A DNA stretch of 64,000 bases, taken from a phage. Of the stretch, positions 14 through 18,072 are shown piece after piece. Location of the stretch: sequence record PZ445446.1; one strand, given 5' to 3'. How positions within the stretch are numbered: the stretch's first letter is position 1; each line of letters starts with the position of its first letter. The notes beneath the pieces were generated by a model that saw only the letters and a program-made list of their open reading frames with translations, made no database searches and had not been told where the DNA came from. The position numbers were made by a program, and so were the translations under genes.

Positions 14-700
14 ATGGCAGAGATTAAGTCGGATGTTAACCACATCCACACTCTGCCAGATTTTGTTCAGGGAGGTCTTGACTACCTACCTGGAGATTTT
101 CTGGCTGAGAAGGTTAATTTAGTCACATTCTTAACCGTATACCTTAAAAGGTTGGAGGATGTTGATAAGATGCTGGTAGGTTTGGCTGAAGGAAGATTGC
201 TTAACAATGCCAGCGGAAGATACCTTGACGAAGTTGGTAATCAGCTTGGTATTCTTAGGAATGGACTTTCAGATGCTGATTTTCGTGCCACACTAATTAT
301 TCAGCAGGCTGCAGCATCAAGGGGCGGGACTCGCGAAGATGTCATCTCCACCTTGCGACAATTGTTCGGAAGAGACAATTTCGATACGTGGAAAGGAGAC
401 AACTTCAGGTTTGACATAAATATTAGAAAAACTTGCTTTGACATATTGCAGTCTATCGATCAGATCTTAGATATGCTACCATTACCTTGTCATTTGCGTC
501 TTACAGAATCGCAAGGGCAAGCTTTTGGTTTTGAAGGGGACTCTACAGCTCTTGGCTTCGGATCAGTGTGGGAAGAAAGCCAATTCGGAGTTGGTGGGCT
601 GGCTACTTTGCTATATGTTCCTGACGTAAGACCTGATTGGGACACCACAACCATTTATTGTGAAAGTATTACAGTAAACGCAACTAGACAGGAGGGTTAA
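14..700 (+). CDS. putative tail/baseplate structural protein
   Basis: 228-aa ORF heading a co-directional block of fiber genes; no catalytic motif; structural role inferred from context. Confidence 0.45.
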   Translation: MAEIKSDVNHIHTLPDFVQGGLDYLPGDFLAEKVNLVTFLTVYLKRLEDVDKMLVGLAEGRLLNNASGRYLDEVGNQLGILRNGLSDADFRATLIIQQAAASRGGTREDVISTLRQLFGRDNFDTWKGDNFRFDINIRKTCFDILQSIDQILDMLPLPCHLRLTESQGQAFGFEGDSTALGFGSVWEESQFGVGGLATLLYVPDVRPDWDTTTIYCESITVNATRQEG

Positions 701-2772
701 TGGCAACAGCTGTTTTTAAACCTTACCGTGATTACTCTACAATGGCTGCACAGTTTCATTACCGAACAGTTCAGGATACTGCCGTTCCTGGTAGGGATTA
801 TAATCATGTTGAGGGCGATATAACTATCCCAGTTGGGGCAACAAGTATTGAGATCCCCGTGGAAATTGTTGACAAATTACCCAACAGGTTGCCAAGAAGC
901 TTCTTTATGGAGTTTTCATCAAAATCCCAAGGGGTAATGATTGGAACACAAAGGGCGAAATGTACAATAGTTTCAGATGAGAATCTTGACAGGATATCTT
1001 GGGATACTGTTGAGGAGAGAATGTTTCACCCAAGGTATTGGGTTACAACTACTCAGCAGACTGAAAGTACCTGTATTGTTGCAGATAACAACTGTTGTAT
1101 TAACCGTTTAGTGTCAAGAACATATGGAGGTATGGCTGGGTGTATTTGGGAAACAGTTGACAAGTATGACCATTTCGGCATTGGGTTTGATGATCACTAT
1201 GAGATGAGAAACACCAAGCTCTGGTTCAGAATGTCAATAACCAACGCCAGCAACTTCTCCACTCCTGAAAAGATGATTATGACTGTAGACCTTGTTGATG
1301 GCACAATCATCTATGTTCCTTTAGCTCAATATGCTGTCAGCATCTCAGAGGATAAGAATGTTGCAGAAATTCATATTGATTTTGAGGACTGCGTCGGGAT
1401 GGACCAGAACAACAACATGATGGGTGTTGATCCTCGGCAGGTGAGAAGGATTTTAATACCACTCATGCCTAAAGACTGGGTAAGTAATAGCACAGACCCG
1501 AGAACGGAAAATGTAGAGTGTGAGTTGCGCCTAGATCTGCTTCAGCCAGACACAGGCTGGAAAATGATGCAACTTAACAATATTCAGGTTAAAGAGCACG
1601 ACGTTGGGATCTGCACCGCATATGACGATATGTGGAACGTATCTCCTTTAAGGGTGTTGAACAATATCAAGCGTCTGGGCTATACCGGAACCATAAACCA
1701 TTATGTTGGTATGAGTCATTATTATGACTACACATGGTCAGGAACCCAATGGTCTATAAACAGAACAGGGGCGCTAAACGCTGCAGCTTATAAATGGCAT
1801 GATGATTTTATGTACAATGCCAAACGACATAACTTCGACGTTATGCAATCTGTAAGTTTTGAGCTTTTCAGCGATGCCTGCCCGTTGGAATGGACCCAAA
1901 GAGACTGGAACGATAACTACGCTAAAACAGGGTATACACCCTGTAGCTACCTCCTGTCTCCAACCATTGAAGAGGGTATGAATTTCCTTACTGCAGTATT
2001 TAAGAATTTTGCATCAGCCGCTATGAGAAACAACCTGCCAGTGATTATGCAGGTTGGTGAACCGTGGTGGTGGTACAATACCGATACTCGTAGACCTTGT
2101 ATTTATGATTACCCTACAAAACAGGCGTTTTATGATGAGACAGGAGAGTATGCATTAGATATTGGGACTATTGACGATCCTAAAACTGGCGGTGTTTACG
2201 ATAAGTATGTAGCATTTTGTCGTGGTAAGCTTGGCGCTCGTATTGCGGCTATTTCAAAGGCAATAAAGGCACACGCTGCATCAGCTCAGATGACAGCTCT
2301 GCTGTTTTTCCCAACCATTATGGAAACCGAGCTTACGCAAAAGCTTAACCTTGCTGACCAATATAAAAAGGAAGCAGGTGCTCTTGATTTCTTCTGCACC
2401 GAGTGCTACGATTGGGTGATGCAGGGAGGTATTGAAAAGGCAAAAGAGTCTGTAAACATACCTATCGTTAAGTTAGGTTGGCAACCGTCTGAAATACAAT
2501 ACCTTGCAGGGTTCGTTCCTAGTAAAGAGCTTGCTCCGGTATATGGTTACGACCCAACCAGGAATTACCAAGAATTTTTATGGAGATGTATTTGCGGAAA
2601 CATGGCAACTATAGAGTATAGATATCCTGAGGTAAAACAGTATGTGTGGGCATACCCGCAAGTAATGTCTGACAGCATCACTGTTACCGCTAGAGATTCT
2701 ACCGTGCTTCATATGGGGCAGGTTGCTCTGAAAGGGTATGTAGAAGATGTTGTCCCGCCAGACTTCTCATAA
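700..2772 (+). CDS. putative tail structural protein
   Basis: 690-aa ORF, start overlaps upstream stop; W/Y/N/T-rich composition; lies in fiber module. Confidence 0.45.
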   Translation: MATAVFKPYRDYSTMAAQFHYRTVQDTAVPGRDYNHVEGDITIPVGATSIEIPVEIVDKLPNRLPRSFFMEFSSKSQGVMIGTQRAKCTIVSDENLDRISWDTVEERMFHPRYWVTTTQQTESTCIVADNNCCINRLVSRTYGGMAGCIWETVDKYDHFGIGFDDHYEMRNTKLWFRMSITNASNFSTPEKMIMTVDLVDGTIIYVPLAQYAVSISEDKNVAEIHIDFEDCVGMDQNNNMMGVDPRQVRRILIPLMPKDWVSNSTDPRTENVECELRLDLLQPDTGWKMMQLNNIQVKEHDVGICTAYDDMWNVSPLRVLNNIKRLGYTGTINHYVGMSHYYDYTWSGTQWSINRTGALNAAAYKWHDDFMYNAKRHNFDVMQSVSFELFSDACPLEWTQRDWNDNYAKTGYTPCSYLLSPTIEEGMNFLTAVFKNFASAAMRNNLPVIMQVGEPWWWYNTDTRRPCIYDYPTKQAFYDETGEYALDIGTIDDPKTGGVYDKYVAFCRGKLGARIAAISKAIKAHAASAQMTALLFFPTIMETELTQKLNLADQYKKEAGALDFFCTECYDWVMQGGIEKAKESVNIPIVKLGWQPSEIQYLAGFVPSKELAPVYGYDPTRNYQEFLWRCICGNMATIEYRYPEVKQYVWAYPQVMSDSITVTARDSTVLHMGQVALKGYVEDVVPPDFS

Positions 2773-2784: not shown

Positions 2785-3825
2785 ATGTCAAAACCTAGTT
2801 TTCCATTAGAGATTTGGGCAGAGGAGGATCAGGTTCTGCCTAACACCCACAGACAGAACAGGCTACGCCCGATTGATGATTTGTGGAGAAAAGGTTGGGA
2901 TCTTGGTCAAAAGCCCTCATGTGAAGAACTTAACTATATTTTCAATATGCTCGGAACTTGGGCAAAATACATTGCTGACGAGCAGATCCCCGCTCAAGAA
3001 GGCCGTTATCTGGTACGTGATAATAACTTGAGTGATCTTTTGAACATTCCTGTTGCCCGTAGAAACCTTGGGATTATTACTAAGGAAGAGGCAGACGCCA
3101 GGTATGTAAAAGTTACAGGTGATACAATGACAGGCCCATTGGGTTTGCAACGTATCAACTTTAAAGCTGCCGAGTCAGATAAGGCTTGGATAGAGACAAC
3201 TATTGGCCCAGATAAGACAACTCTCGACTTTGGGTTAAGTGATAATACCGGGTCGTTTGATGATGGTGGTACATCTACAGTGGATGCGTTCCGTTGGAGA
3301 TTCCAGCCAACTCAGCCGGATATTAATCCAGAGTTCACTTTGATGTACCTTAACGCGATCACGGCTAACCGTGCGCTGTTGAAAGTGGTAGGCAATGTTG
3401 AAGTTGTCGATAACATGAGGTGCAATAACCTTACTATCAGCAATACAGCGACATTCACCAACTGTAATGTGGCTAGTCAGTTGACGGCTGGGTCAGTGTA
3501 TGTTAATGGTGGTGCAAGTTGTGACAGTATGGTTGTAAGAAGCCAGCACTGTGTTGTCGGTAACAGAAATGTGGTTCGCTCTGTGAACGGAGTGACGGCT
3601 AACGGTAACGGTGATGTAACGATCACTATCCCGCAGACAGGTGTGCAAGACATCAGAATCGGTGCAAGACTTGTGGACGGAGTTTCTGAATCTCCAATCC
3701 GCAACGGCTACGTTGTCACAGGCTGGCATTTCGGTGACAAAAAAGAGATGCGTGGTTCAACCTACTGGGCAGGACCTTTACAAAAACTTGTAAATGGTCA
3801 ATGGATCACTGTTAATTATGCATAG
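2785..3825 (+). CDS. tail fiber protein (paralog A)
   Basis: 346 aa; N-terminus (FPLEIWAEEDQVL) and C-terminus (QKLVNGQWITVNYA) conserved with ORF 4837-5883; G/N/T/V-rich repeats typical of fibers. Confidence 0.6.
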   Translation: MSKPSFPLEIWAEEDQVLPNTHRQNRLRPIDDLWRKGWDLGQKPSCEELNYIFNMLGTWAKYIADEQIPAQEGRYLVRDNNLSDLLNIPVARRNLGIITKEEADARYVKVTGDTMTGPLGLQRINFKAAESDKAWIETTIGPDKTTLDFGLSDNTGSFDDGGTSTVDAFRWRFQPTQPDINPEFTLMYLNAITANRALLKVVGNVEVVDNMRCNNLTISNTATFTNCNVASQLTAGSVYVNGGASCDSMVVRSQHCVVGNRNVVRSVNGVTANGNGDVTITIPQTGVQDIRIGARLVDGVSESPIRNGYVVTGWHFGDKKEMRGSTYWAGPLQKLVNGQWITVNYA

Positions 3826-3839
3826 ATCGGAGGACTAGC

Positions 3840-4424
3840 ATGAAAATACTTCAAGAGTTTAAACTTTACCAACCGGGATCTGGCGAATACCGCACCAACA
3901 AGGAAACCAAGGAGCTGACCCCTCAAGAGGTTGAGGATTACACAGCATACACTGGGTATTTTTTACGTAATGATGATGGCGATTGGTATGTGCAGTCACG
4001 AACATTACGACAAGAAAATCCGGGGTGTATCTTCCTACTTGTTGACGAGAAGGGAATTCTTAAGACATCTACAGAAGAACCTGATGCCTTATGGCCTGCT
4101 CCAGGTCTTCGTGTGGTTATCGCCAAAAAAGAAGAGGTACCAGAAAACATTATGCTTCACCACGACGCTTTGCGTTTAGTTGGTGATGAATTTGTCACAG
4201 ACAATGAATTCTTTGTTCAACAGGCAGAGGGTGTCATAGAGACAGAACTTGCTTGGGCTACTGCTAGAATTGGTGCCTATCAAGACATGATTGACCTTGA
4301 ATATGATCTTACTGATGACCAGAAACGTAACATCAGAGATTTGAAAATGTACAGGGTAAAACTTCTTGAAATAGATACATCTAAAGCCCCTGACATTTTC
4401 TTCCCGGAGCGACCTACCCTCTAA
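3840..4424 (+). CDS. putative tail fiber assembly/chaperone protein
   Basis: 194 aa directly downstream of fiber gene; role inferred from position only. Confidence 0.35.
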   Translation: MKILQEFKLYQPGSGEYRTNKETKELTPQEVEDYTAYTGYFLRNDDGDWYVQSRTLRQENPGCIFLLVDEKGILKTSTEEPDALWPAPGLRVVIAKKEEVPENIMLHHDALRLVGDEFVTDNEFFVQQAEGVIETELAWATARIGAYQDMIDLEYDLTDDQKRNIRDLKMYRVKLLEIDTSKAPDIFFPERPTL

Positions 4425-4435
4425 GAGGAGGTGTT

Positions 4436-4750
4436 GTGGAGTTGGATTTGGCGGCATTGTACGGTATCTGCATGGGTACCGTTGTCCCGATCTGTGTATG
4501 GGCTTTCAACCAGTGGCACACCAAATGGAAAGGCATTTCCAAGAGGTTGGATGAACTGGAGAAAGACCTCATCTTAGTGAAAAACAGTATGGTTACAAAA
4601 GATAAACTTGATTCCGTTATCGAGACCCGGTTAAGCAAGCTAGAGGCCGATATTAACGACCTTAAGCAGGATGTCAGGACAGATGTCTCCGGCATCCGAG
4701 CTGATGTACAAAAGATTTTGCACATGCTCGTAGAGCATAGTAAAAGGTAA
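4436..4750 (+). CDS. membrane-anchored coiled-coil protein (GTG start)
   Basis: 104 aa; GAGGAGG RBS before GTG; N-terminal hydrophobic segment then heptad-like coiled coil; i-spanin-like or fiber-associated. Confidence 0.4.
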   Translation: MELDLAALYGICMGTVVPICVWAFNQWHTKWKGISKRLDELEKDLILVKNSMVTKDKLDSVIETRLSKLEADINDLKQDVRTDVSGIRADVQKILHMLVEHSKR

Positions 4751-4757
4751 ACAAAGG

Positions 4758-4795
4758 TCAGAACGGAAAGGACTCCGTTCTTGCATTTTGTTCTC
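4758..4795 (+). terminator. putative intrinsic terminator
   Basis: AGAACGG/CCGTTCT stem then T-rich tract after stop of 4436-4750. Confidence 0.45.
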
Positions 4796-4836
4796 TAAAG
4801 TGTTAAAATAGTCCTAAGGAATTTTCTCAGGAGAAC

Positions 4837-5883
4837 GTGATGACTAAACCAGTTATCCCTCTTGATATTTGGGCCAATCAGGATGTTGTGCTTGAAAATA
4901 CGGGAGAGTTGAATAAATCTCAACCAAAAAAAGAAGAGAGATTGAAAGGTTGGGATATGACACAAAGAATGGCATGTGAAGTTGTTAACTTTGAACTTCA
5001 CATGCTTTCTGCGTGGTTGAAGCATTTAACAGAAGATGTTGTCCCAGGATGGGATAATAGATTCTTAAGGGTCACTAATAATCTAGCAGACGTTCCAGAC
5101 AAAGCTGCTGCACGTCAAGTTCTCAATGTATACTCACCTGAAGAAATGGACGATCTATATGTTGACAAGTCTGGAGACATAATGACTCAGACTCAAACTT
5201 TAGGTCTTCAAAGAATCGAGTTTGCATCTGCGTCAACAGACAGTGCGGCAATATATACCACCATAACTCCAGACAAGACGACGATGGATTTCTGGATTAT
5301 GGACAACATCGGTGGTGCTGACGGCACAGACCTTGATGATCCTTCTCACCAAATAGATGGGTTCCGTTGGAGATTTCAACCTTCTGGTGGGCAGCCTGTG
5401 TTTTCAGCTATGAAGCTCAATGCTATAACTGCCAACCGTGCAAGACTGGCTATCCAAGGAAATCTTGAATGCAACGATGCAAAAAGTTCCTCTGCAAATG
5501 CCAATGCGGTCACGATACCAAGAGCCACTGTTAATGGACAACAATCCTGCGGAAGCGCTCAAATAGGTGGAAGAGTTGATTGTAACGATGAAACCGTCAG
5601 GGGCCAATATGCAACAGTTGGTGGAAGAAACGTGGTCCGCAGGGTAAATGGTAACGGCGCAGACAGTAGCGGTAACCTTACTATCCCTATGCCTAGCAGA
5701 GGGGTTGATGATGTAAGGATAGCAAACCGTTTTAAAACCACCTACAGAGAGTCAAGAGTCTACCCTGGACATGTGATGTGCTCTGGTAACTACGCTTATA
5801 AACACCCTTATCAAGGTGATTACTGGACAGGTGCTATCCAAAAACTTGTAAATGGTCAATGGATCACTATATCTTATGCTTAA
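4837..5883 (+). CDS. tail fiber protein (paralog B)
   Basis: 348 aa; shares N- and C-terminal segments with ORF 2785-3825 (…QKLVNGQWITISYA), central region diverged. Confidence 0.6.
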   Translation: MMTKPVIPLDIWANQDVVLENTGELNKSQPKKEERLKGWDMTQRMACEVVNFELHMLSAWLKHLTEDVVPGWDNRFLRVTNNLADVPDKAAARQVLNVYSPEEMDDLYVDKSGDIMTQTQTLGLQRIEFASASTDSAAIYTTITPDKTTMDFWIMDNIGGADGTDLDDPSHQIDGFRWRFQPSGGQPVFSAMKLNAITANRARLAIQGNLECNDAKSSSANANAVTIPRATVNGQQSCGSAQIGGRVDCNDETVRGQYATVGGRNVVRRVNGNGADSSGNLTIPMPSRGVDDVRIANRFKTTYRESRVYPGHVMCSGNYAYKHPYQGDYWTGAIQKLVNGQWITISYA

Positions 5884-5894
5884 AAAGAGGGTAA

Positions 5895-6161
5895 ATGAAA
5901 CTAACTCAGTTTTTATGGGGACTGGTTGCGGCATCTGATGACCCTACGAAAGTGTCCCAATCTAAGCTATGGTCGAACATAGGCATGGCGGTGATGACTG
6001 GGGTGTTTATTCATATGGGGTATAATGATACGCTTCCTGAATGGTATGCGTGGATATACGCGCCTTCAGTAGCTTGCCCCCAGCTTATTAGCAAATTCAT
6101 CTCGCTCCGGTGGGGTTGCCAGCACCCTGACCACGTTAAAAACGAAGAGCAAAAAGCTTAA
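5895..6161 (+). CDS. small hydrophobic protein
   Basis: 88 aa with hydrophobic stretches (MAVMTGVFIHMGY); downstream of fiber gene. Confidence 0.35.
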   Translation: MKLTQFLWGLVAASDDPTKVSQSKLWSNIGMAVMTGVFIHMGYNDTLPEWYAWIYAPSVACPQLISKFISLRWGCQHPDHVKNEEQKA

Positions 6162-6170: not shown

Positions 6171-7916
6171 ATGGCGCAAGACATGACAAGCTTTGAGCAG
6201 GCGGTAGATCAAGTAATTGTTGATTCTGAACGTTTGCACCTGATTGTCAACGGTAACGCTGTGGATGAAGTTGTCGTAGAGGATGGGACCACCATCCCTA
6301 CGGTACGAAAAGCCATGCTTGACACCCTTTATTTTAAAACGCCACCGATCCCTTGGGCGTATGGTGCATCCACAACAGTTTTTAACCAGCTGTACGAGTT
6401 TAAAGGGGACACAGGCCCTCAGTGGTGGTACGCTCCCGCAGCATCAAAATCTAACCCGGTTAGAATGCCAGCAGATCCTTCACAATCTCCAAACTGGAGA
6501 TTATATACCGATTCTGCAGTAATGGCAAAATACTACGCAAAACTTAACAGTCCGAGGTTCGAAGGTGACCCGCGAGTACCTACGCCTCCAATGGACGACA
6601 AATCCGAGTCTATAGCAAACACAGAGTTTGTTGTTGACTATGTGGATAGCATATTTGAAGCCATGGAGGGAATGAAAGTTACTGTAGGGTCTTTGGTGGT
6701 AAAAGGTCTTACAGAACTTGCTAACACTATAGTTGGTGGCACACTCACCTTACATGGGCCTGTTAATGGAGCAGATTCTACTGCACGCTTCAGGAACCTA
6801 ATCCTCACGGCAAATACTTCTACACTTACTTTTGCGTGGAGTGATCCTAAGCATGCAGACTGGAGAAGCACAGAGCTGCAACCTCATGAAGTGTCCACCC
6901 ACAGGGTTATAGCTGACACTATAACTTCTGGGAAACCAGTGGCTAATAATAACGATGTGCATTTTGATGGTCTAGGTAATAACTTTTTTGACTACGTGTA
7001 CATTCGTGGTAATGCCATGAAGGCAGCAACCGAACCGACATTGCAGGTAGATGGAACCACCAGGGTTAAGAACCTTGAGGTGACAGGCACTGTTACAGGG
7101 ATAACCTACTCTGTCGATGGCACCATGATTTACCCTAGCTATATTGAAAGCACGGGGGACGCATTAATAAATGGTGATTTAGAAGTTGGCGGATCTGTAG
7201 TTATTCGAGGTACAGCCTCTATCCAAAACATAGCTCTGAATACCCTAAGAGTCAATGAGCGTGCAACTTTTGAAGGGAAAGGGCTTACAGCCAACAAAGG
7301 TGTAATTACCGAGCTGACAACCACTACTTTAACTGCAACAACTGCAAACTCTGAAAACTGCAACGTTACCAGAAACTTACAGGTAAATGGAGATGTTAGT
7401 TTAAACGCAGCAGGGACGGGCACCACCTACCTTCACAACCTTGAAATATCCGGCACAGTGACTGGGTGGCTGCCAGACTTCTCTAATGTCAACTTTGTTT
7501 GTAATGGCATTAACTCCAGTGGCAAGATAACCACCTCTCAAGAAATTGAGGCGGGTAAAACCATTACTGCCCCTACTTTCCACGCAGGAAAGGTAGATTT
7601 TGATTTAGAGGAGGTTGACGCGTCCAGTGGGACATGGACACCTAACGGGCAGGCCAGTATGTATGTTGTCCACGCGAAAGGGGATTTTACAATAGGACAA
7701 TGGCCTGGTACATCAGCGGAAGATAAACCTTATCCATTCACTGCGGTTATCTATGTCATTCAGGATGCTGTAGGTCACAACGTGACTTTGCACGATAAGT
7801 ATGCTATCCTGTCGGCAACGCCTGTTATTAATAACAAGGCTAATAGTGTTACCTTGCTGCAATTAACATATTGTGGTGTTGGTGATATCGTAGACGTAGT
7901 AATTGCACAACGTTAA
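6171..7916 (+). CDS. tail fiber/tailspike protein
   Basis: 581 aa; long G/T/N/V-rich beta-repeat region; AGGAGA RBS. Confidence 0.55.
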   Translation: MAQDMTSFEQAVDQVIVDSERLHLIVNGNAVDEVVVEDGTTIPTVRKAMLDTLYFKTPPIPWAYGASTTVFNQLYEFKGDTGPQWWYAPAASKSNPVRMPADPSQSPNWRLYTDSAVMAKYYAKLNSPRFEGDPRVPTPPMDDKSESIANTEFVVDYVDSIFEAMEGMKVTVGSLVVKGLTELANTIVGGTLTLHGPVNGADSTARFRNLILTANTSTLTFAWSDPKHADWRSTELQPHEVSTHRVIADTITSGKPVANNNDVHFDGLGNNFFDYVYIRGNAMKAATEPTLQVDGTTRVKNLEVTGTVTGITYSVDGTMIYPSYIESTGDALINGDLEVGGSVVIRGTASIQNIALNTLRVNERATFEGKGLTANKGVITELTTTTLTATTANSENCNVTRNLQVNGDVSLNAAGTGTTYLHNLEISGTVTGWLPDFSNVNFVCNGINSSGKITTSQEIEAGKTITAPTFHAGKVDFDLEEVDASSGTWTPNGQASMYVVHAKGDFTIGQWPGTSAEDKPYPFTAVIYVIQDAVGHNVTLHDKYAILSATPVINNKANSVTLLQLTYCGVGDIVDVVIAQR

Positions 7917-7924
7917 TATATATC

Positions 7925-7955
7925 TAACCGCTCCTGACGGGGCGGTTTTCTTATC
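7925..7955 (+). terminator. putative intrinsic terminator
   Basis: AACCGCTCC-tgac-GGGGCGGTT hairpin then TTCTT between fiber gene and giant gene. Confidence 0.45.
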
Positions 7956-7966: not shown

Positions 7967-10900
7967 ATGCTTCCAATCCCTTTGCTAAAACTTGGTCGTC
8001 ATTTCCTCGATAAGAGGGGTGGAATTAAGGAACTTGCTGTTCTGTCATACCCAATAGACAACAGTGATGGTACAAGCAACACAGTATCCTATGTAAATAG
8101 CTTAGCTATACTTTTTGATGATGGTCAGCTTAATATTACTGGCTATAATAGGTTCGGAGAGTGTCGGACTGGAGATCTTGATACAATAAACTATCCTAAT
8201 GAGGCAGCTTGGAACGTAGACCATGTTTGGAGAGCTGACCGTGCATTTGTAATCCGCACATTCGATAATAAATTTTTCTATATTGGTTGCACAGCTGGTC
8301 TTATCGGATCGGAGGCAGCAGGTGGAAACGATGTTTGTGTCAGAGAGTGGACACCTTTGCCGGAACAGATCGTAACAGGGTTGCATTTGGACACCCATCC
8401 TGAGAGACTTGTTGAAGTAATGGGTGGCGTAAACAATACAGTGTGGGTAATTGCTGCACCAGAGGCTGATGGTATGCTTCACCTGTACGGCTCTGGCAAT
8501 AATACTTACGGCTCTCTTCATGTTGACAAAAATCAGCATGCAACCCCTGTAAAGATTGGTGAGACATCGGAAAATCCTGAAACAGGTCCTTGGAAAAACC
8601 CAAGCATCAACTGCGAGGTGCATGACAACTCTGTTATTTTCGGTGGTCCTAGAGGTTTCTGGATTGCTGGATACGACTTTCTGAGAAATAACAGTAGAAA
8701 CGACCTTGTTTGGCCTCCTGTGCAGATTACTCGTAACGATTTGAGGGGCATTCCTGCAGATGAGGAGTGGAAAGGGTTTATGTGCGGTCCTAACGGGGCA
8801 ATAATTGCCACACAGAGGATGCATAGACCCGATGACCAGCAGCTTGTTAACGTATTTTATGGTCAAAACATTTGGGGAGATGATACATGGCGGGAACTGA
8901 ATATCACCTACACCCATGAGGTAATAATGGCTCGTGGGTACGGCACAAGTGGCATTTTCTTCAATAATGGCACCAAGCAGTATCGTGGATTCTCTCGCAA
9001 CTTGTGTAATGATATTGGTGCACAATCTGCAAACAATAGTCCTAGGTCCGATTTTATCCACTATCAAGCTCTTGCTACAGCTAAATATGTTGAGCAACGC
9101 CTGCCAGTTAGCTGGACAGAGAGTGTTTATTTCCAAGGCATCCATAGAGAAGGTTTCTTAGGGACCTTTACTGTTGTTAATGGTAAACTTTGGTGGTCAG
9201 GCATCCCAAGGGGAAGTTTTGCAGGCTCTAACAACCTGTTTGGAGGCAGACTTAATAGCCAGGGGTTCACAGAGGTTCCTGAGAATTGGTATAAAAATGT
9301 CCCGGTAGACAGTTGGGGTGTTGAGGATATTTTCGACGTTAACGGTGTTAGCAGCGTTAGCAATATTTACATTGGTGACACGGTCAAGATGAAGTTGAAG
9401 CCTCAGCCAGAGGGGGCTACGTTCATTATTGACAAGATTGAACTGGTAAATGCTGCAGGTACGGTTGTTACAGATGCAAATTACCAATTCTCCACCAACT
9501 GGAACCACGGCGGGGCCAACGAAGTTGTTGTTACCCAGTATAACAGAAATGTTAACAGACGTGGCCTGTACTCTGTAAAAATAACCTATCATGACAAGCA
9601 TGGCACAGGCAGAACCCATACGACAAGGACTTTGAACTGGAACACCATAGTTCCTGCGTATCCGTCCAACGGCAAGTGGCATACTGTCGGTAGAAACAAA
9701 CAGTTCCATGTCAACGATACTGTATACTTCGGGCTTAACGCAGCTCAACCTGCTGTAGAAGGCGATACATCGTATATAGTACGACTCCATAGAATGGATG
9801 CCGGGTCTGTAACCTACGATGTGACTCAGGAGATCTACGATCAGAGACGTACCACGTATGACAATGTTGTGAAAACACAAGCCTTGTGGGAGTTCAACCC
9901 TAACGGCAGAGGCGGTAAAATGTTGCAGGTCAACGAGCAAAACGGGACATCGTTGACTGTCCATGAACATCCAGATCCTTGGCCTGATCCTGGAAAACCT
10001 AACTCTGGTGCTCGTACACTGAAAATTGTTAGCCATGATGCAGGATATTTCGGAATACGCTGGGAAGCCACAGTAAGATATGCCGACGGGACAACAAACA
10101 ACATAGGGATCACCCTTGATGGCACTAGTGAGGATAACTCCCTGAAAATTGCCTACACCCCTAGGGGCATCTCTATTGACAACATAGATGTTGTTCGCAA
10201 CGGTTACGGCGATGTGAATGTCAAAGTTACTCTTGGCGAACATCTTGGTGGGGAAAGGATCATCATGTATGCCTTTGATCATGATCCGCGCACCAATGGG
10301 ACTTATGCAAATCAGGCATGGAGTTATCTGATAAATGCACCTGAGCCGAATACTAAAGAGTTCTACTACGGTATGAAGCGAGATGTGTGCAAGAAAACAG
10401 GAACACATGACTGGATTGCTATCTGCGTTAAAGATGAGCGCACAGCTTGGGATGAGCCTGTTAACAGATGGTTCATAGGTATTCCTACCAGAAGTGATAA
10501 GTATGTCGCAGAATATATTGTATGCATGGGCGGTACCAACCTAAACATGTGTTGGAACGAAGATGTAAACAAATACTCTGATTATGACTATATGAGGGAT
10601 TACTCTTGTAATTTGTGGTTTAACCAAACTACAGGTTACCCTCCGCGTCAGGCAAGGGTAAATCCTGCAATCTTTACAGATACGCAGGTTTTCTTGACAA
10701 AACAGGCCAACGAGGTCCAGACCTTCAAGAACAAATACGACCCTAATAAGTGGTTCTATAACTGCTATGGGGCATTTTTCTGGGGACCTGGAGAATTACC
10801 TGGTGGTGGCTCTTGTTTTGAGGCTGCAACTTACGCCAGTGACAGATTTATGGGCCAGGTCAAGAAATACAAGATAATTCCAGGGCCTGAAACTTTAGGC

Positions 10901-13603
10901 AACGCTGTCGACCCCTATATCATCATGAGTGATCTAAGATCGAACATGGATGGAACATCCATATCTATGCAAGTTCCGGTAACAAACGGATACAAGCGTG
11001 TTGTGATGATCATTAAGTGCGATCTGATAGGTAAGCAAGTTCTTGCAGAGAACGGAACTTCCACCCACCTATTTGAGACTGCTCTGCACTATCAGTTTGC
11101 TGATTCACCTTTTGCAGGGGATAAGAGAATATCTGACACAGACGCTGTGCGATGCAAGAAATTTATGCTAGGTGGTGGGTGGTGGTGGTATGAATTTGAC
11201 TTAACAGACAAATTCACCGACACGTCTAAAGTAGTGACGGGGCTTCGTCTAGACCTTGGCGAAAACATGCACAAAAGTGTTTGTGATGGCACCTACGGTG
11301 ACCCAACAATCTACTTAAAGTATGTCTCTTTTGAGCACCCAGAGGATGTTGTTTATGGTCCAAAACTGAGACTGTTTGGCAATTGGATTGCTAAAGACAG
11401 GGTAGGTATGGGCAAGAAGGTAAGAGGCTTCTTAATGGATGCCGGTACAGAGGACATGCTAGTCAATGCAGTGTGGCCTGAATTACCTGGGACTCAGTGG
11501 AACAACTCAGCCAAATCTATAAACTGGTTCAATATCCACAGGGCTATGTGGACAACCAACTGTTACCTGTGGAAAGAGCTGAATGACGGCGCTTTCGGGT
11601 TCACAGGCGGCAGAAGAATGGCAATCATTTGCTGGACAACGTTGCAAAGATGTTATGACCATGACTACGAGATTGGAGGTAGGGCATGGAAAAATATTAG
11701 GGATAGAATCATAACCAACTTTGCAGATCCTAACGGTGGTGGAGCGTATGGCTTCGACTGCAGCAGGCTCATCCATTTGAACGGATCCTCTGCCTACAAG
11801 AAAGAAGGTTACTCTGGGTCTATGATAGAATGGGGCCTGGTGAAAGATGCTCGCGTGCTGATGGGTCAACAACTTGCTGCTGCAATAGGTCCTAATGCAG
11901 TGCAATCTGTTAAACCTGCGTGGTTTGATATCCCATTGTGGTCATCCGGTACACCAGGAACTGCTGCAATCAACCCTACCACGGGGGATCTGGAAATCTC
12001 TTGGGAGGACTTGAAGCAGGTTGGAGGCTGGGATAAAACAGGGTATCAGGTCCAGTGGTGGAGGGCTGATGGATCTTTAGCCGCTGATGAGTTTGTTAAG
12101 GACAATTTCTACACCATGTCCTCTGCAAAAGCACAGCAATTATTTGGTCAGGCCACTCCGTCAACGATCACCATGTCTATGTGCTGTAAAGACAACAGGA
12201 CTGGAGCTTTGGGGCCAAGGGTTGCTAAGGTTTTCTCAGGTATTAAATGGAATCTCCCTGTTCAAAGTGTTTCATGGAAGCAAATAGGTGATAACAAGCT
12301 GCTGGTTACCCCTGCCTGTCAGTTCAACGCAACTCTTAACGTTGATCCTGCTGTTGCGGCAAACTCAGCTAAAGCTTCTGACTTCTCTGTGTCTAACACT
12401 GCTATGGCAGATGTGAGGAAGATTGACACACTGAACGCCAGAATTACCTGTAAAAACACTTATGGCACATTCCAAATCATCAACAACTTCACAGATGCTG
12501 ATTCTAAGGTAGTAAGGACAGCAAGCCAGACTCTGAGTTTAGGGACTCTGGCCTATGCGGCCCTGATCACCGAACAGTCGGCAACACTCCAAGGAGGCGG
12601 TGTAGGCAAGTCCATTGCAACACCTGTGTGGAAGCCGAATGAGTGGGTTGTGTTTGATTTGACTGTGGACTTCTCCAGTGATAATAACTGGACATGGGTA
12701 AGGAATTGTTTGTCACAGTTGATGGGCGGTCCAAGCTCCATTAGCGATAGTCACGACTCTACTGACCCGAGCGTGTTCCAGGTGGGTAAAACTCACCCAG
12801 AGACTGGAGAAACGTTGCCTGACAGGAAGTATGCTTTGGTTTGCATCTCTTACGGGAAGGCAGATGTCACCTTCTCAGGGACACACACTTATAACGGAAC
12901 CTACAACTTCTCAAGGAAGTATAGTCTCAAAGCAGGGAACATTGTAGACGAGGTTGGTGTGCTGTATAATCCAGGTAACGGCATAGGGATTGTGGGTGGT
13001 AAACTGCAGATGCAGGAACCTTCTATTACCCCTTCCAACGTATCCGGTATTAGAAAGACTTGGGAAAGTAGTAATACCAACATTGCAACAGTGGATGCTG
13101 CCACAGGGCTGGTAACATTTAAAGCTACTGGGAATGTCACCATAAAGTTTGTAGTTACAGATGATGCAGGGCGCAAAACGTCTTCAACATCTTTTACTGT
13201 CAAACAGATGGCACCACAGTGGAGAATGTGGATAGGTACAGCAACAAACGGGGCATACCCTAATCCGGCAGGTACTTCTGGTATGAAGACTTTCTCTACA
13301 AGCAAACCGATGGAGTACGGCAGCGGTCCTAAGGTAGGGCAGATGGTGTACTTTGGTGCGTATATTCCTGAAATTATAGGGCTTCCGAGAAGTCAGCTTC
13401 AGTTGCTGTTTGGGGCTGGTGTTGACGATCTTGCCACTTTCGGGTATAGCGACAACATCGAGGCTGCAAGGAGTTCAGGATGGGTAGGGTTCAGAATGGA
13501 GTCTGGAAAGGAAGGCAGGATTCTAGGGACAGCCTCTATAGGTGTTATGTTCCCTGGTGACCAGCAGTATCGTCTAGAAGCCTACGCAACCTTTTCTCGT
13601 TAA
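7967..13603 (+). CDS. giant tail-associated structural protein with Ig-like domain
   Basis: 1878 aa; beta-rich W/Y/N/G composition; C-proximal segment resembling bacterial Ig-like (Big_2-type) fold; followed by strong terminator. Confidence 0.55.
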   Translation: MLPIPLLKLGRHFLDKRGGIKELAVLSYPIDNSDGTSNTVSYVNSLAILFDDGQLNITGYNRFGECRTGDLDTINYPNEAAWNVDHVWRADRAFVIRTFDNKFFYIGCTAGLIGSEAAGGNDVCVREWTPLPEQIVTGLHLDTHPERLVEVMGGVNNTVWVIAAPEADGMLHLYGSGNNTYGSLHVDKNQHATPVKIGETSENPETGPWKNPSINCEVHDNSVIFGGPRGFWIAGYDFLRNNSRNDLVWPPVQITRNDLRGIPADEEWKGFMCGPNGAIIATQRMHRPDDQQLVNVFYGQNIWGDDTWRELNITYTHEVIMARGYGTSGIFFNNGTKQYRGFSRNLCNDIGAQSANNSPRSDFIHYQALATAKYVEQRLPVSWTESVYFQGIHREGFLGTFTVVNGKLWWSGIPRGSFAGSNNLFGGRLNSQGFTEVPENWYKNVPVDSWGVEDIFDVNGVSSVSNIYIGDTVKMKLKPQPEGATFIIDKIELVNAAGTVVTDANYQFSTNWNHGGANEVVVTQYNRNVNRRGLYSVKITYHDKHGTGRTHTTRTLNWNTIVPAYPSNGKWHTVGRNKQFHVNDTVYFGLNAAQPAVEGDTSYIVRLHRMDAGSVTYDVTQEIYDQRRTTYDNVVKTQALWEFNPNGRGGKMLQVNEQNGTSLTVHEHPDPWPDPGKPNSGARTLKIVSHDAGYFGIRWEATVRYADGTTNNIGITLDGTSEDNSLKIAYTPRGISIDNIDVVRNGYGDVNVKVTLGEHLGGERIIMYAFDHDPRTNGTYANQAWSYLINAPEPNTKEFYYGMKRDVCKKTGTHDWIAICVKDERTAWDEPVNRWFIGIPTRSDKYVAEYIVCMGGTNLNMCWNEDVNKYSDYDYMRDYSCNLWFNQTTGYPPRQARVNPAIFTDTQVFLTKQANEVQTFKNKYDPNKWFYNCYGAFFWGPGELPGGGSCFEAATYASDRFMGQVKKYKIIPGPETLGNAVDPYIIMSDLRSNMDGTSISMQVPVTNGYKRVVMIIKCDLIGKQVLAENGTSTHLFETALHYQFADSPFAGDKRISDTDAVRCKKFMLGGGWWWYEFDLTDKFTDTSKVVTGLRLDLGENMHKSVCDGTYGDPTIYLKYVSFEHPEDVVYGPKLRLFGNWIAKDRVGMGKKVRGFLMDAGTEDMLVNAVWPELPGTQWNNSAKSINWFNIHRAMWTTNCYLWKELNDGAFGFTGGRRMAIICWTTLQRCYDHDYEIGGRAWKNIRDRIITNFADPNGGGAYGFDCSRLIHLNGSSAYKKEGYSGSMIEWGLVKDARVLMGQQLAAAIGPNAVQSVKPAWFDIPLWSSGTPGTAAINPTTGDLEISWEDLKQVGGWDKTGYQVQWWRADGSLAADEFVKDNFYTMSSAKAQQLFGQATPSTITMSMCCKDNRTGALGPRVAKVFSGIKWNLPVQSVSWKQIGDNKLLVTPACQFNATLNVDPAVAANSAKASDFSVSNTAMADVRKIDTLNARITCKNTYGTFQIINNFTDADSKVVRTASQTLSLGTLAYAALITEQSATLQGGGVGKSIATPVWKPNEWVVFDLTVDFSSDNNWTWVRNCLSQLMGGPSSISDSHDSTDPSVFQVGKTHPETGETLPDRKYALVCISYGKADVTFSGTHTYNGTYNFSRKYSLKAGNIVDEVGVLYNPGNGIGIVGGKLQMQEPSITPSNVSGIRKTWESSNTNIATVDAATGLVTFKATGNVTIKFVVTDDAGRKTSSTSFTVKQMAPQWRMWIGTATNGAYPNPAGTSGMKTFSTSKPMEYGSGPKVGQMVYFGAYIPEIIGLPRSQLQLLFGAGVDDLATFGYSDNIEAARSSGWVGFRMESGKEGRILGTASIGVMFPGDQQYRLEAYATFSR

Positions 13604-13920: not shown

Positions 13921-14139
13921 TCACAGATCTCCAACAACTTCCCAAATACCCCAGTGAGCATCTATATCCTTGATAAAGTATCTTTCTCCACGGTTTGTCC
14001 ACACACCTATCCCAACTTTACCATCTATCCCATTGTATACATCTGCCTCATACTCTTTGCCCGGTGTAAAGTGTACACCCATCATAAGGGCTGTTATTCC
14101 ATTAGGATTTTTAAATTTAACAAATTTTACTTTGCTCAT
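13921..14139 (-). CDS. hypothetical protein
   Basis: 72-aa ORF in tight minus-strand array. Confidence 0.4.
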   Translation of the reverse strand: MSKVKFVKFKNPNGITALMMGVHFTPGKEYEADVYNGIDGKVGIGVWTNRGERYFIKDIDAHWGIWEVVGDL

Positions 14140-14140
14140 A

Positions 14141-14470
14141 TTACTTAATCCTTGCAGTTACAGTAGCGCTATACCCCATGTAGTTATGAGACATAAAGAA
14201 TGTAAGCCCTTTAAGTTCAGGATTCTTTCTAAGAAATCGTTTCAATTTTCGAATGCAATTAACACCATGATCATAGTTTGAGAAATTAAATTTAATACCC
14301 TGCTCCATCATAGTGCACACTTCTTCATGGGTATGCCATTGTCTATCGTGGTCACAAAACCAGTAACCAATACCTTCTTTTTCTTGGATATGCAATCCCC
14401 AAAATACTTTATGCATTGGATATTTTGGTTTTCTACCATGATAATGTAGTTTAATATTCACATGTGCCAT
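14141..14470 (-). CDS. hypothetical protein
   Basis: 109-aa ORF; His/Cys-rich; promoter-like region upstream on minus strand. Confidence 0.4.
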   Translation of the reverse strand: MAHVNIKLHYHGRKPKYPMHKVFWGLHIQEKEGIGYWFCDHDRQWHTHEEVCTMMEQGIKFNFSNYDHGVNCIRKLKRFLRKNPELKGLTFFMSHNYMGYSATVTARIK

Positions 14471-14639
14471 TTTTTTGTTACTCCGTTCTATATCTGTGAT
14501 AATGAGAATAGCAAACTGGGGTGTGTGCTGTCAACAACATTTTTAAGCGTTTTGGGGAAGTTTTTTGAAAGGTGGGTGTAATCACAAGAGAGGGTGGAGT
14601 TATTGAAGGCACAGGCCTCTTTTGAGGCCTTAAAATCGA

Positions 14640-15020
14640 TTATGACACTTTGACGTAGCGCTCTGACAGAGCTGGAAAGCCAAAAGCAGTACCTATACTA
14701 CCGTATGCTACCCACCATTGAAGTTCATCGTGACACCATTTTCCGATCAGGAAGGTGCTGGGGTAGCGGGTCAGTATTTTGGCATAAGCTTTAGGGTCTG
14801 CATCTTCTGGGATAATGATACTTGGAACATCTTTGTTATGGCCACAGCAGCAGTTTAGAGTTTTCAATCCTGCCGCCCATAGACTCATGATAGGCTTAGC
14901 CATGCACTTATCAAGGCACACACGTTTTTTGCCGTCACGGAGCTTTTTAGGCACATCAACGATAACATTTTGATGCTTGGCACCTTTCACTTTCCAATTA
15001 TAGGATTTACACTTGCACAT
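14640..15020 (-). CDS. hypothetical Cys-rich protein
   Basis: 126 aa with several Cys clusters (CKCK, CLDKC, NCCCGH); possible metal-binding. Confidence 0.4.
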   Translation of the reverse strand: MCKCKSYNWKVKGAKHQNVIVDVPKKLRDGKKRVCLDKCMAKPIMSLWAAGLKTLNCCCGHNKDVPSIIIPEDADPKAYAKILTRYPSTFLIGKWCHDELQWWVAYGSIGTAFGFPALSERYVKVS

Positions 15021-15217
15021 TTAATCAGTCTCCATCTAGAAAGCAATACTTTACTTAAAATCTTTGTCACCTATTACGATTGCACGAATCCACTCATTGT
15101 GATGTTCAATGGCGGTAAGGTGTAACATAATGCAGTGATTGTCATTACCAAACACGGTGCGGTAAGCTTTAGCAGCACCATGATATAACTTCCACATCAG
15201 GTAATGATATCTTCGCC

Positions 15218-15697
15218 TCATGGCTCTTTCTCCGGTTCAGGATCTGGGTAATCTTCAATAATAAAGGGCCATCCGTTCCGCTTAGCCTCAGACTTGTACT
15301 CAATCTCCTTCATTGCAAACTCTAACTGATTTTTAGCCGGAATACATGCCGGAGAATCATCAACCCAGATATCTGGGTAGATATCAAACTGCGCCAGGTA
15401 GGCTGCCTTCTGAACACCGCCAGTATAAAACACACCAACATCGAGCTCCTTGCGCCAATACTCAATGTCCACATTGTCTTGAGTAATGAATCGGAAAGTC
15501 ACAAGGTATACTGTCCACCCCTCCTTCTTCAGGTCCCTGATCAGGCGGGAGAAGATGAAAGGGCTCGCATTAAACGTTCCATCAAAGTCAATGGCAATGA
15601 TGTGAGTGCCGTGGCGAGTCTCATATGGATTGCTTGTGGTAAGATTGCTGTAGTTAAAAGGGACCTCTTCCCCGCAGTAGCTGTAGTCCATATTCAC
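15218..15697 (-). CDS. HAD-superfamily phosphatase (5'-nucleotidase-like)
   Basis: 159 aa; motif I IAIDFDGT (DxDGT) and C-terminal WVDD; HAD-type nucleotidase pattern. Confidence 0.55.
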   Translation of the reverse strand: MNMDYSYCGEEVPFNYSNLTTSNPYETRHGTHIIAIDFDGTFNASPFIFSRLIRDLKKEGWTVYLVTFRFITQDNVDIEYWRKELDVGVFYTGGVQKAAYLAQFDIYPDIWVDDSPACIPAKNQLEFAMKEIEYKSEAKRNGWPFIIEDYPDPEPEKEP

Positions 15698-15969
15698 ACC
15701 TTCTCGTTGATAAATTTACGGGCGGTTTGGTGAGTTGTTTCTGCTGTCTTCAGAATAATATTAATTTTATCGTCAAGATCATTCATCTCAGCAGTTAATT
15801 CAGGAATCTCTCCGGCATGCATAGTGAAATCATACATAGACATGCCAAGAATCTCATTGATTCGGCGGTTGCATTCTGCAGCACGCTGGTTCATTTTCCA
15901 AGCTAACACCAGAGCCTCTTGCGTAGCCTCCAGTGCAAAGTCTAATACGTCAGCTTCTTCTTTCGTCAT
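15694..15969 (-). CDS. hypothetical protein
   Basis: 91-aa ORF, stop/start overlap with neighbour. Confidence 0.4.
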   Translation of the reverse strand: MTKEEADVLDFALEATQEALVLAWKMNQRAAECNRRINEILGMSMYDFTMHAGEIPELTAEMNDLDDKINIILKTAETTHQTARKFINEKV

Positions 15970-16024
15970 CTCAGTCTCTCTTGTTGTATTGTTGGTAGGT
16001 GCATGAACACCTTATATCTCACTT

Positions 16025-16591
16025 TTATTCAAACTGCAATAGTAAGTCCACCACCGCGCTAGGTCTGTCAACAAATTCCCCAGGTCCACATGCCCACAGA
16101 GGGTATCCGTCTACATACCGCCAAATCCAACCTGCAGTGTGTAGCTCAAGCAGGGCAGTACCGTCCTTACTGTCAACCACTCTTTCCCACAGTGTTGGGC
16201 AGCGAAGCTTGAGAATCGGATCACCTCCCTTATACCCGTCCATATAGATACCCATTGCAAAGTTCAGCATCATCTTTTTGTGCACTGATCTCTTACTGAG
16301 AGTGCTCATCACTTCCTCTTTGTGAATGTTTGTAAGCTTCTCTTTGGCTACCCGCAGATCGTTGCAACCATTGTTCAGCAGATCTTCCAGACACTTGATC
16401 CGAAGGTCGTGAATGTCTTTGTCGTGTACCGTTGGCACAGGGTCGTAGCGGTATAGCACTGTTGATACAAGGTTGCTCGGGTGTGGGTCTGACAGCAACC
16501 CATAACCCCAATACTCTTCTGTATCTGAAAGGACAAGACACCCAATGTCTCTGTCAAGCTTTCCTGTGTTGTAAGCCACATTGACCGCCAT
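16025..16591 (-). CDS. hypothetical protein
   Basis: 188-aa ORF in minus-strand array. Confidence 0.45.
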   Translation of the reverse strand: MAVNVAYNTGKLDRDIGCLVLSDTEEYWGYGLLSDPHPSNLVSTVLYRYDPVPTVHDKDIHDLRIKCLEDLLNNGCNDLRVAKEKLTNIHKEEVMSTLSKRSVHKKMMLNFAMGIYMDGYKGGDPILKLRCPTLWERVVDSKDGTALLELHTAGWIWRYVDGYPLWACGPGEFVDRPSAVVDLLLQFE

Positions 16592-16593
16592 GA

Positions 16594-16839
16594 CTATAGC
16601 TCCACTAACAAAGTGCTTTCAAAGTGCCGTTCATGCAGACCGTTGTAAGGGACCACTTCTACAACGCCATCACGGACATATGGGGCCATCATGGTGGTAT
16701 AATCTCCAAACGGGTTGGTATTGTCACTAACCACAACCACCTTCTGCCCTTCCTTGGCAGAGTGCCAAATAGATCTGCACTTCATCAGGTGTTCTAGAGC
16801 TCCAGGTAAAATTTTGTTACGTTCTTTACGGGTCTTCAT
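16594..16839 (-). CDS. hypothetical protein
   Basis: 81-aa ORF, tightly packed. Confidence 0.4.
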   Translation of the reverse strand: MKTRKERNKILPGALEHLMKCRSIWHSAKEGQKVVVVSDNTNPFGDYTTMMAPYVRDGVVEVVPYNGLHERHFESTLLVEL

Positions 16840-17285
16840 AACAGGTATAGCTCCTTATGAAAGTGGTCTTTTAATTTCTCACTGAGAAACCTCTTGATAC
16901 CTTCCTCTAAAGTGTTTTCGATGTAGTCCAGCTTAACCGCTTCGATGGACATATCATAGATCGCCAGCTCTAAGCTGTCAAGTCCCATCATAGCATGAAC
17001 CATAAGATTTTCATCTTCAGATACATTCAGGGGACTTCCTATAACATCTGTAGGTAGGATAGTTTCCCAATTATTCTGGGGGGTAGTTCTCCCACCCTCC
17101 ACTTTACGGCGCAGTTCGAAGGTGTTCTTAGTGTAGAACACTTCATAAGAAACGATACGACTATCGCTCTCATAATAAACGAAGTTCAGGTAGGAGCCTA
17201 GCCGCAGTCGGCAAACTTCTACCCCAAACCATTGTTTCTTATAAGAATTCAGGCTAATGCTGTCGCATTCACGCTTGCTCAACAC
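16836..17285 (-). CDS. hypothetical protein
   Basis: 149-aa ORF, overlapping stop/start. Confidence 0.45.
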   Translation of the reverse strand: MLSKRECDSISLNSYKKQWFGVEVCRLRLGSYLNFVYYESDSRIVSYEVFYTKNTFELRRKVEGGRTTPQNNWETILPTDVIGSPLNVSEDENLMVHAMMGLDSLELAIYDMSIEAVKLDYIENTLEEGIKRFLSEKLKDHFHKELYLL

Positions 17286-17301
17286 GGCTATCTCCTTTTT
17301 G

Positions 17302-17535
17302 TTAATCTTCGTAAATCAGGATCTCTGCTTTAGGTTTTCGTGCTTTCAGGTCCAGCTCTATCCAGTGCACCATAGCTGTTTCAAGAAAAACAGCCTGTAT
17401 GCATCCGTCTTCAGCGTGCCCTACCAGCATAACAAGATCTTCACCTTCATCATCTGCATCACGAACATACAAAATCTCTCCAGATTCAAAGTCTTTCACA
17501 ACCTGATTGCTGGATAATTTACGAATTTTTGCCAT
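17302..17535 (-). CDS. hypothetical small acidic protein
   Basis: 77-aa ORF. Confidence 0.4.
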   Translation of the reverse strand: MAKIRKLSSNQVVKDFESGEILYVRDADDEGEDLVMLVGHAEDGCIQAVFLETAMVHWIELDLKARKPKAEILIYED

Positions 17536-17536
17536 A

Positions 17537-18066: not shown

Positions 18067-18072
18067 CCTCTC

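Follow-up and report, generated by a model that had tools for sequence, protein, structure and literature searches.

A 64,000-nucleotide stretch of phage DNA (sequence record PZ445446.1; this whole stretch is the window throughout) carries two paralogous genes for short tail fibers (STF1 and STF2) in a module that holds a single gene for a tail fiber assembly chaperone (Tfa). The 3.5-kb fiber region shows 99.5% DNA identity to Shigella phage CM1 and Escherichia phages A51.2 and AlexBoehm and, at ≥90% identity, occurs in 116 phage records, nearly all of which belong to Vequintavirus (rV5-like) myophages; judged by this likeness, the source of the window is a Vequintavirus, an rV5-like E. coli myophage. 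The rV5 counterparts of the module are gp33 (STF1, 346 aa), gp32 (Tfa), gp31 (104 aa), gp30 (STF2, 347 aa), gp29 (88 aa) and gp28 (581 aa), while the pair described for the BASEL collection (AlexBoehm bas56_0034 / bas56_0037) consists, like rV5 gp33/gp30, of the same genes (98.8-100% protein identity) in the identical order STF-Tfa-104 aa-STF-88 aa-581 aa, annotated in BASEL records as two 'short tail fiber protein' entries, a 'tail fiber chaperone' and hypothetical proteins. By these matches the pair is the published one, and the finding is real and already known. The explanation favoured here, with a probability of roughly 60%, is that the two genes encode paralogous Vequintavirus short tail fibers, STF1 being the ancestral and STF2 the derived copy, both present on the virion, with two specificities and a shared Tfa. 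Under this explanation, both fibers would be assembled on the virion, STF1 would contact the conserved core receptor in lipopolysaccharide (LPS) and STF2 would supply a second, different terminal specificity for another LPS-core chemotype. Both would rely on the one Tfa, and recurrent short-tract gene conversion would keep their last beta-strand identical because both have to fit it.

Prior to this analysis, the sequence-only reading had described two full-length tail fiber paralogs with conserved ends and divergent centres. Paralogy was confirmed over the full length of the proteins (BLASTP, 152/356 identities, 43%, E=4e-94), both of which match phrog_4465 'tail fiber protein' end to end (E about 1e-170). 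Both open reading frames (ORFs) exist as described, save that the second was given a GTG start at 4837; ATG 4840 is more plausible because the spacing from the AGGAG box upstream is 6 nt for this codon and just 3 nt for the GTG, and because all database records use 4840. Conservation of the ends held for the C-terminus, where the segment QKLVNGQWIT[VI][NS]YA is common to both proteins (12/14 residues), but not for the rest of the pattern: in 30-aa windows conservation peaks in the centre (residues ~119-204, 50-67%) and is lowest at ~46-90 (27-30%), ~205-245 (23%) and ~291-335 (27-33%), and the N-terminal 110 aa are only 38% identical. The C-terminal motif is a signature of the family rather than of the pair, with Q333, G338 and W340 invariant in 34/34 homologs, and it is recognisable also in the short tail fiber of phage phiTE and in GpS of phage Mu. 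The possible chaperone and the membrane/coiled-coil protein noted between the two fiber genes were identified as a Caudo_TAP protein (Pfam E=8.5e-12) and a 104-aa protein with one transmembrane (TM) helix (p104), respectively.

Family membership was assessed by running phmmer and a family profile of 34 homologs against all PDB sequences. With phmmer, STF1 residues 1-108 match the phiTE STF (E=1.4e-19), as does the N-terminus of STF2 (E=1.1e-9), and STF1 residues 286-343 match residues 440-501 of Mu GpS (E=2e-6). With the profile, matches to the phiTE STF lie at either end (E=2e-34), and those to Mu GpS cover residues 150-255 and 440-503 (full E=8e-14; tip domain E=4e-8). Structure prediction, which had been proposed as a check, led in the same direction for the one model searched, with Foldseek returning for the STF1 monomer a sole significant match, 5yvq 'Complex of Mu phage tail fiber and its chaperone' (E=2.5e-6); the confidence of the models themselves is low, as given below. 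In the phiTE baseplate structure the N-terminal joint of the STF attaches to Wedge 1, and a Wedge 1 homolog stands at the start of the same module (14-700; phiTE Wedge 1, E=6e-67) as a single copy, both in the window and in the AlexBoehm tail module; by homology, this protein is the predicted docking partner of the joint. Sequence likeness strongly supports homology of the N-terminal joint of each fiber to the phiTE joint that anchors on Wedge 1, and homology, for the family as a whole, of shaft and C-terminal tip to the LPS-binding fiber GpS of Mu is likewise strongly supported. The fibers are members of a Mu GpS-like/phiTE-type short-tail-fiber family, with STF2 departing from its docking motif. 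HHpred similarity to T4 gp12 was reported in 2013 (PMC3606486); sequence-level membership of that family was rejected, as no gp12 chain was found at E<=1 by phmmer or the family profile among all PDB sequences. The likeness to gp12, a baseplate fiber that irreversibly binds the LPS core and has a different chaperone system, is a functional analogy.

Each of the known relatives differs from the window pair in some respect. The phiTE short tail fiber (gp236; PDB 9cuy/9mjn) is like them in having a related tip and a homologous N-terminal joint (residues 1-91), by which it docks on Wedge 1; it differs in its length of 554 aa, which includes a long coiled coil as well as Ig-like domains, and phiTE is single-copy, flagellotropic and LPS-independent. 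Mu GpS (gp49)/GpU (gp50) (PDB 5yvq, 9ki1) have the homologous mid-region and tip and an adjacent Caudo_TAP chaperone, while the window fibers are about 150 aa shorter than GpS and carry a joint of phiTE type. Phage phi92 encodes a single-copy STF homolog, gp147 or 'fiber III', after its Wedge 1 protein gp146 and followed by the Tfa gp148, and it lacks p104 in the stretch examined; the shaft of gp147 is different, and its overall identity amounts to 34% with STF1 and 25% with STF2. It has been described in the phi92 structure of 2026 (PMC13450770) that fiber III forms six downward trimers under the wedge which swing on contraction; irreversible adsorption is its proposed role.

The polarity of the duplication can be read from gene order. 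In the single-copy relatives, Seunavirus SSE121, TH18 and Mydovirus AV124, the order is STF-Tfa-p104-p157-p88-fiber, and STF2 occupies exactly the slot of p157, a strongly hydrophobic protein of 157 aa that has some five TM segments and is unrelated to fibers; therefore STF1 keeps the ancestral position, which is that of the single STF in SSE121, TH18, AV124 and phi92. The p157 slot lies at L003:5997-6470, L004:6020-6493 and L005:5847-6320 in the relatives' loci and corresponds to 4751-5894 of the window; Vequintavirus lacks the gene, and no p157 homolog was identified anywhere in the window. In these relatives, p157, p104 and p88 make up a trio of small membrane proteins inside the tail-fiber module. 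STF1 is also the closer of the two to the single-copy fibers by BLASTP (43-47%, STF2 35-39%). In a neighbour-joining tree, the STF1 and STF2 clades are sisters with 95% bootstrap and the STF2 branch is much longer; when the domains were taken separately, the shaft supported sisterhood at 50%, the tip at 15% and the N-terminal domain at 0%. Position, docking motif and a widely shared tip type together give strong sequence support to STF1 as the ancestral copy and STF2 as the derived duplicate, whose evolution was faster in both the docking domain and the loops of the tip.

The sequence-only reading had placed two alternative receptor-binding proteins on a common attachment scaffold. The first part is retained, in that these are paralogous receptor-binding short tail fibers whose differing tips are compatible with different specificities; the common scaffold is not, as the N-terminal baseplate-docking domain is the most diverged part, at the 38% given above, and carries replacements found in STF2 only. 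Within residues 1-110, STF1 is 51-59% identical to the single-copy homologs of other genera and 38% identical to STF2. When 86 conserved columns were defined as those kept in ≥90% of the 27 aligned homologs outside the STF1 and STF2 clades, nine changes were found in STF2 only and three in STF1 only, and seven of the nine STF2-only changes lie in the N-terminal 110 aa (P19E, W34R, K43R, Y51F, N54H, Y62H and K100P). The family docking motif RPIDDLW.KGWD.GQKP.CE..NY is kept in STF1 and in every other aligned homolog, whereas the STF2 clade reads QPKKEERLKGWDMTQRMACEVVNF; STF2 nevertheless retains the invariant P4, P7, W11, A12, G37, D39, E47, N50 and W59.

It may be that STF2 docks away from Wedge 1, at another baseplate site or on another fiber (gp28 or gp27), so that the virion would bear two separate downward sets instead of one mixed set at six sites, an arrangement considered unlikely here. 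It would account for the seven STF2-specific replacements at family-conserved sites, including those in the docking motif, and for residues 1-110 of STF1 being nearer to other genera than to STF2, with sisterhood at zero bootstrap in that domain. Wedge 1 is single-copy, the putative transcription unit that holds STF2, gp29 and gp28 is a separate one, the N-terminal codons hold orthology-pattern sites only, with no conversion, and there is precedent for fiber-on-fiber mounting in phi92, where fiber II sits on fiber I. Against it, STF2 still matches the phiTE joint (E=1e-9) with nine invariant residues, and its faster evolution could be due to relaxed constraint instead of a new partner. Such docking free of Wedge 1 can hold with either view of specificity, because it concerns mounting only. 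A more elaborate scenario, in which STF2 has been neofunctionalised, with its joint off the Wedge 1 site used by STF1, phi92 gp147 and the phiTE STF, two six-fold sets of fibers, different LPS-core specificities and gene conversion serving the shared Tfa, is also regarded as improbable in this combined form.

The putative transcription unit of STF2 is suggested by a 90-nt spacer upstream of the gene, unlike its tightly packed neighbours, which holds an intrinsic-terminator-like hairpin and the box TGTTAAAATAG. This box resembles the rV5 late-promoter motif TggTAaAAtA (PMC3606486), and in L006, an assembly from an uncultured sister lineage, an equivalent hairpin with T-run is present and the box is conserved as TGCTAAAATAG. 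STF2 thus appears to have its own terminator and late-promoter-like box, the latter a putative promoter, and gp28 is likely co-transcribed with STF2. The sole other exact match to TKNTAAAATAG in the window is at 41304-41314 (+), TGCTAAAATAG, and may be another late promoter.

At the 3' ends of the two genes, a 30-nt exact match (3781-3810 / 5839-5868) encodes QKLVNGQWIT, and the last 10 shared degenerate codons of STF1 and STF2 are identical in 10/10 cases, against 33% elsewhere (permutation p about 0.003). Identity of this core between the paralogs is 30/30 in the window and 29/30 in L006, and three synonymous changes relative to the window genes (CTT>CTG, GTA>GTC and CAA>CAG) are common to both L006 paralogs. 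By its sequence pattern, this 3' patch is a signature of concerted evolution by short-tract gene conversion, because the paralogs are alike within a genome and share the same synonymous differences between lineages. The N-terminal 110 codons hold eight orthology-pattern sites and no concerted ones. Sites of concerted pattern outside the 3' patch were found at R170, C213, V263 and R265, of which codons R170 and V263/R265 may mark further conversion patches. Concerted evolution beyond the 3' patch as a general feature was rejected, as the paralogs had a codon in common within both genomes at 20/122 sites, which is not clearly more than a rough expectation of about 12.

The chaperone that both fibers would have to share is of the Mu GpU type, is encoded directly 3' of STF1 and is the only Tfa in the window or in the AlexBoehm tail module; the next gene after STF2 is that of the 88-aa membrane protein, with no second Tfa. 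It is 31% identical to phi92 gp148, and comparison with PDB by sequence gave no meaningful match. In Mu, Tfa binds the distal tip of the fiber and remains in the mature virion. Mu carries two alternative fiber/chaperone sets, S/U and S'/U', switched by inversion of the G segment, and each Mu fiber has its own chaperone, whereas the window pair would share one Tfa and is presumably co-expressed from the same strand. An invertible switch of this Mu type was rejected for the window, because both genes lie on the + strand and no flanking inverted repeats are present, only three short imperfect ones (14-18 nt, 78-86% complementary).

Both genes are widely kept. At ≥95% protein identity and full length, STF1 was found in 93 + 22 records (~115, Vequintavirus-type), and STF2, at ≥95% protein identity, in 55 + 60 records (~115, Vequintavirus-type) plus one at 90-95%. 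The six genes are arranged alike in the uncultured sister lineage (Logan assemblies L006-L008), where STF1 is 87% and STF2 78% identical to the window copy. Nonsynonymous divergence (dN) from this lineage is 0.10 for STF1 and 0.16 for STF2 with synonymous divergence (dS) saturated, and therefore both copies are under strong purifying selection. The tip of STF2 is 93% conserved against a homolog of 78% overall identity. That both copies are functional and kept by purifying selection is, from these comparisons, strongly supported.

The tips, which would decide specificity, are of unequal kinship. The STF1 tip (...GVSES...TGWHFGDKKEMRGSTYWAGPLQ...) is 56% identical to that of phi92 gp147 and 57% to that of SSE121, and 57-61% identical to tips of Seunavirus, phi92-like, phAPEC8-like and 52-kb Salmonella/E. 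coli myophages; the STF2 tip (...TYRES...CSGNYAYKHPYQGD-YWTGAIQ...) is only 33-45% identical to those of the same records. The tip loops also differ strongly, reading TGWHFGDKKEMRGS in STF1 and CSGNYAYKHPYQGD in STF2. By these comparisons, the STF1 tip is a widely shared module and the STF2 tip a lineage-specific derivative, an asymmetry that is compatible with two specificities and is no proof of them. The paralogs (given as 42.3% identical) were suggested by Kropinski et al. 2013 (PMC3606486) to recognise, possibly, two LPS chemotypes, and Maffei et al. (BASEL) described two STF paralogs and a chaperone related to Mu GpS/GpU. A prophage origin of the tips was rejected, as blastn found no match for either of them in 5,426 complete E. 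coli genomes. A search with the STF2 tip in a collection of 5.8 billion proteins returned nothing, not even its own STF2 cluster, and is uninformative.

Several points weigh against two specificities on two assembled fibers. Both tips hardly vary within the genus, so that nothing points to diversification driven by host range. The argument of the BASEL authors, which bears on the wider host range raised as a possibility in the sequence-only reading, is that one terminal receptor in the LPS core serves all Vequintavirinae, and they read the absence of allelic variation in the two paralogs as a shared receptor; for the BASEL phages, following the genetics of phage LL12, this terminal receptor is the first outer-core glucose of LPS, and the dependence on the LPS core is known genetically for the whole phage, not per fiber. 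As regards the virion, the mass spectrometry (MS) table for rV5 (PMC3606486, Additional file 5, Table S5) lists 19 loci (61, 60, 64, 53, 52, 133, 79, 152, 82, 34, 237, 41, 62, 235, 106, 37, 1, 27 and 228), from which gp30, gp32 and gp33 are absent. The late-promoter motif has two matches in the window against 0.45 expected by chance, and the promoter assignment rests there. STF2 alone gave no Mu GpS match by phmmer and was reached through the family profile only, and the AlphaFold2 (AF2) monomer models are poor, with predicted local distance difference test (pLDDT) scores of 66 and 58.

The first of these points lead to an alternative in which the two paralogs are redundant, binding the same conserved outer-core glucose of LPS, with the duplication raising avidity or filling sites. 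This is held to be somewhat doubtful. It agrees with the shared receptor argued for in the BASEL paper, with the requirement of LL12 for WaaC, WaaF and WaaG only and its infection of K-12, R1 and R3 core types, with the conservation of both tips at ≥95% over ~115 genomes, and with the tip framework residues and last strand, which are common to both fibers. The differing loops speak against it, as does the resemblance of the STF1 tip alone to other genera; furthermore, two copies that stay at 43% identity while purifying selection acts on both in diverged lineages are easier to account for by distinct roles.

The MS table bears on another alternative, namely that STF2 is non-structural or decaying, being missing from virions or a pseudogene in the making. 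The rV5 MS data without STF2, the lack of a dedicated chaperone and the faster evolution of this copy would fit it. The same data are also without STF1 and the chaperone, with 19 proteins in all, and the ORF of STF2 is found intact and at full length in ~115 genomes and is preceded by a strong Shine-Dalgarno sequence; together with its dN of 0.16 at saturated dS and its conserved tip, this makes the alternative highly improbable. The main text of the rV5 paper (PMC3606486) suggests that gp30, gp32 and gp33 were detected, contrary to its MS table, and in its Table S3 the flag 'MS evidence' is given to gp34 and gp41 alone. Searches of the supplement by gene names, unique tryptic peptides and molecular weights gave no gp30, gp32 or gp33, and no Vequintavirus virion proteome was found in other papers (CM1 is without MS and W70 belongs to another genus). 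Later papers that cite rV5 virion proteomics for these fibers rest on the wording of that main text.

The practical interest lies in the phages themselves: rV5-like phages are among the E. coli phages of broad host range that are isolated most often, and they are considered for use in therapy and biocontrol. Routes to resistance and targets for engineering depend on which fiber makes the irreversible contact with the LPS core. Conceptually the finding brings nothing new, because both the pair of paralogs and the proposal of two specificities had been published before (2013, 2021). New here are the direction of the duplication, the rewired N-terminus of STF2, the unequal tips, the conversion tract and the absence of MS support from rV5. 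The polarity is clear, with STF1 ancestral and bearing the canonical tip and STF2 derived; the altered docking motif of STF2 is a concrete testable point; and the 3' patch is a small example of concerted evolution between fiber genes. As a correction, the often-cited rV5 proteome shows neither fiber in virions.

Table 1. Coordinates of the short-tail-fiber module and its associated signals in the window
Feature	Position	Strand	Basis or remark
Wedge 1 baseplate protein (rV5 gp35)	14..700	+	phiTE 'Wedge 1 protein' E=6e-67, Phi92_gp146 E=1.7e-23 (phmmer vs PDB); phrog_4056 baseplate protein
690-aa lateral fiber (rV5 gp34 / phi92 gp142 type)	700..2772	+	Pfam NCTSP TIM barrel E=4e-80, NCTSP_N
STF1 (rV5 gp33), 346 aa	2785..3825	+	phrog_4465; phiTE-type N-terminal joint, Mu GpS-like mid-region and receptor-binding tip
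Identical 30-nt core in STF1, codons Q333-T342	3781..3810	+	proposed gene-conversion tract
Tfa tail fiber assembly chaperone (rV5 gp32)	3840..4424	+	Pfam Caudo_TAP PF02413 E=8.5e-12; phrog_136 E=2e-36
p104, 104-aa membrane/coiled-coil protein (rV5 gp31)	4436..4750	+	phrog_5345; one TM helix, residues 5-23
Intrinsic-terminator-like hairpin, end of STF1-Tfa-p104 unit	4760..4781	+	8-bp stem, then TGCATTTTGT
Late-promoter-like box TGTTAAAATAG 5' of STF2	4801..4811	+	likeness to rV5 late motif; putative
STF2 (rV5 gp30), 347 aa	4840..5883	+	derived, faster-evolving paralog; rewired N-terminal domain, lineage-specific tip
Identical 30-nt core in STF2, codons Q334-T343	5839..5868	+	same letters as 3781-3810 of STF1
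p88, 88-aa small membrane protein (rV5 gp29)	5895..6161	+	phrog_1322 'membrane protein'
581-aa fiber (rV5 gp28)	6171..7916	+	PDB 9cuy_g 'Putative tail fiber protein' E=7e-77, second fiber modelled in phiTE baseplate
Terminator-like hairpin	7926-7947		3' of gp28

Among the small proteins of the module, p104 is kept at the same position in SSE121, TH18 and AV124 and shows weak coiled-coil-type matches besides its single N-terminal TM helix. The protein p88 is 50-58% identical to its counterpart in the single-copy relatives, and its homolog in phi92 is gp144 (37% identity; L010 7570-7836), located between the endosialidase gp143 and the wedge gene gp145; p88 is a conserved small membrane protein whose place within tail modules shifts. 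The 690-aa protein possesses a Calx-beta domain as well as non-contractile-tail-sheath N and TIM-barrel domains like those of N4 gp65, and the phi92 gp142-type protein is named in the literature as the binder of the N4 glycan receptor. This fiber type is present in TH18 and absent between Wedge 1 and the STF in SSE121 and AV124, and its rV5 counterpart gp34 is flagged with MS evidence in that phage.

Downstream of the hairpin that follows gp28, an ORF of 1878 aa (7967-13603) encodes the counterpart of rV5 gp27, a lateral fiber with Ig-like/intimin domains. This slot varies among the sister contigs, L006 having genes of 475 and 183 aa followed by a cut 1209-aa gene, and L007 and L008 having single long genes of 1876 and 1499 aa, respectively, both cut by the end of the locus; these differences fit the known allelic variability of that fiber. 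GC skew and AT skew flip sign at ~14000-20000 and ~60000-64000, which is consistent with minus-strand gene blocks as annotated in AlexBoehm 3' of the fiber module. Finally, ~16-21 records named 'Campylobacter phage' (MG065635, MG065655, MG065658, MG065662 and others; host Campylobacter jejuni) are ~99% identical to E. coli Vequintaviruses in this region, and they look like mis-assigned hosts or contaminating coliphages.

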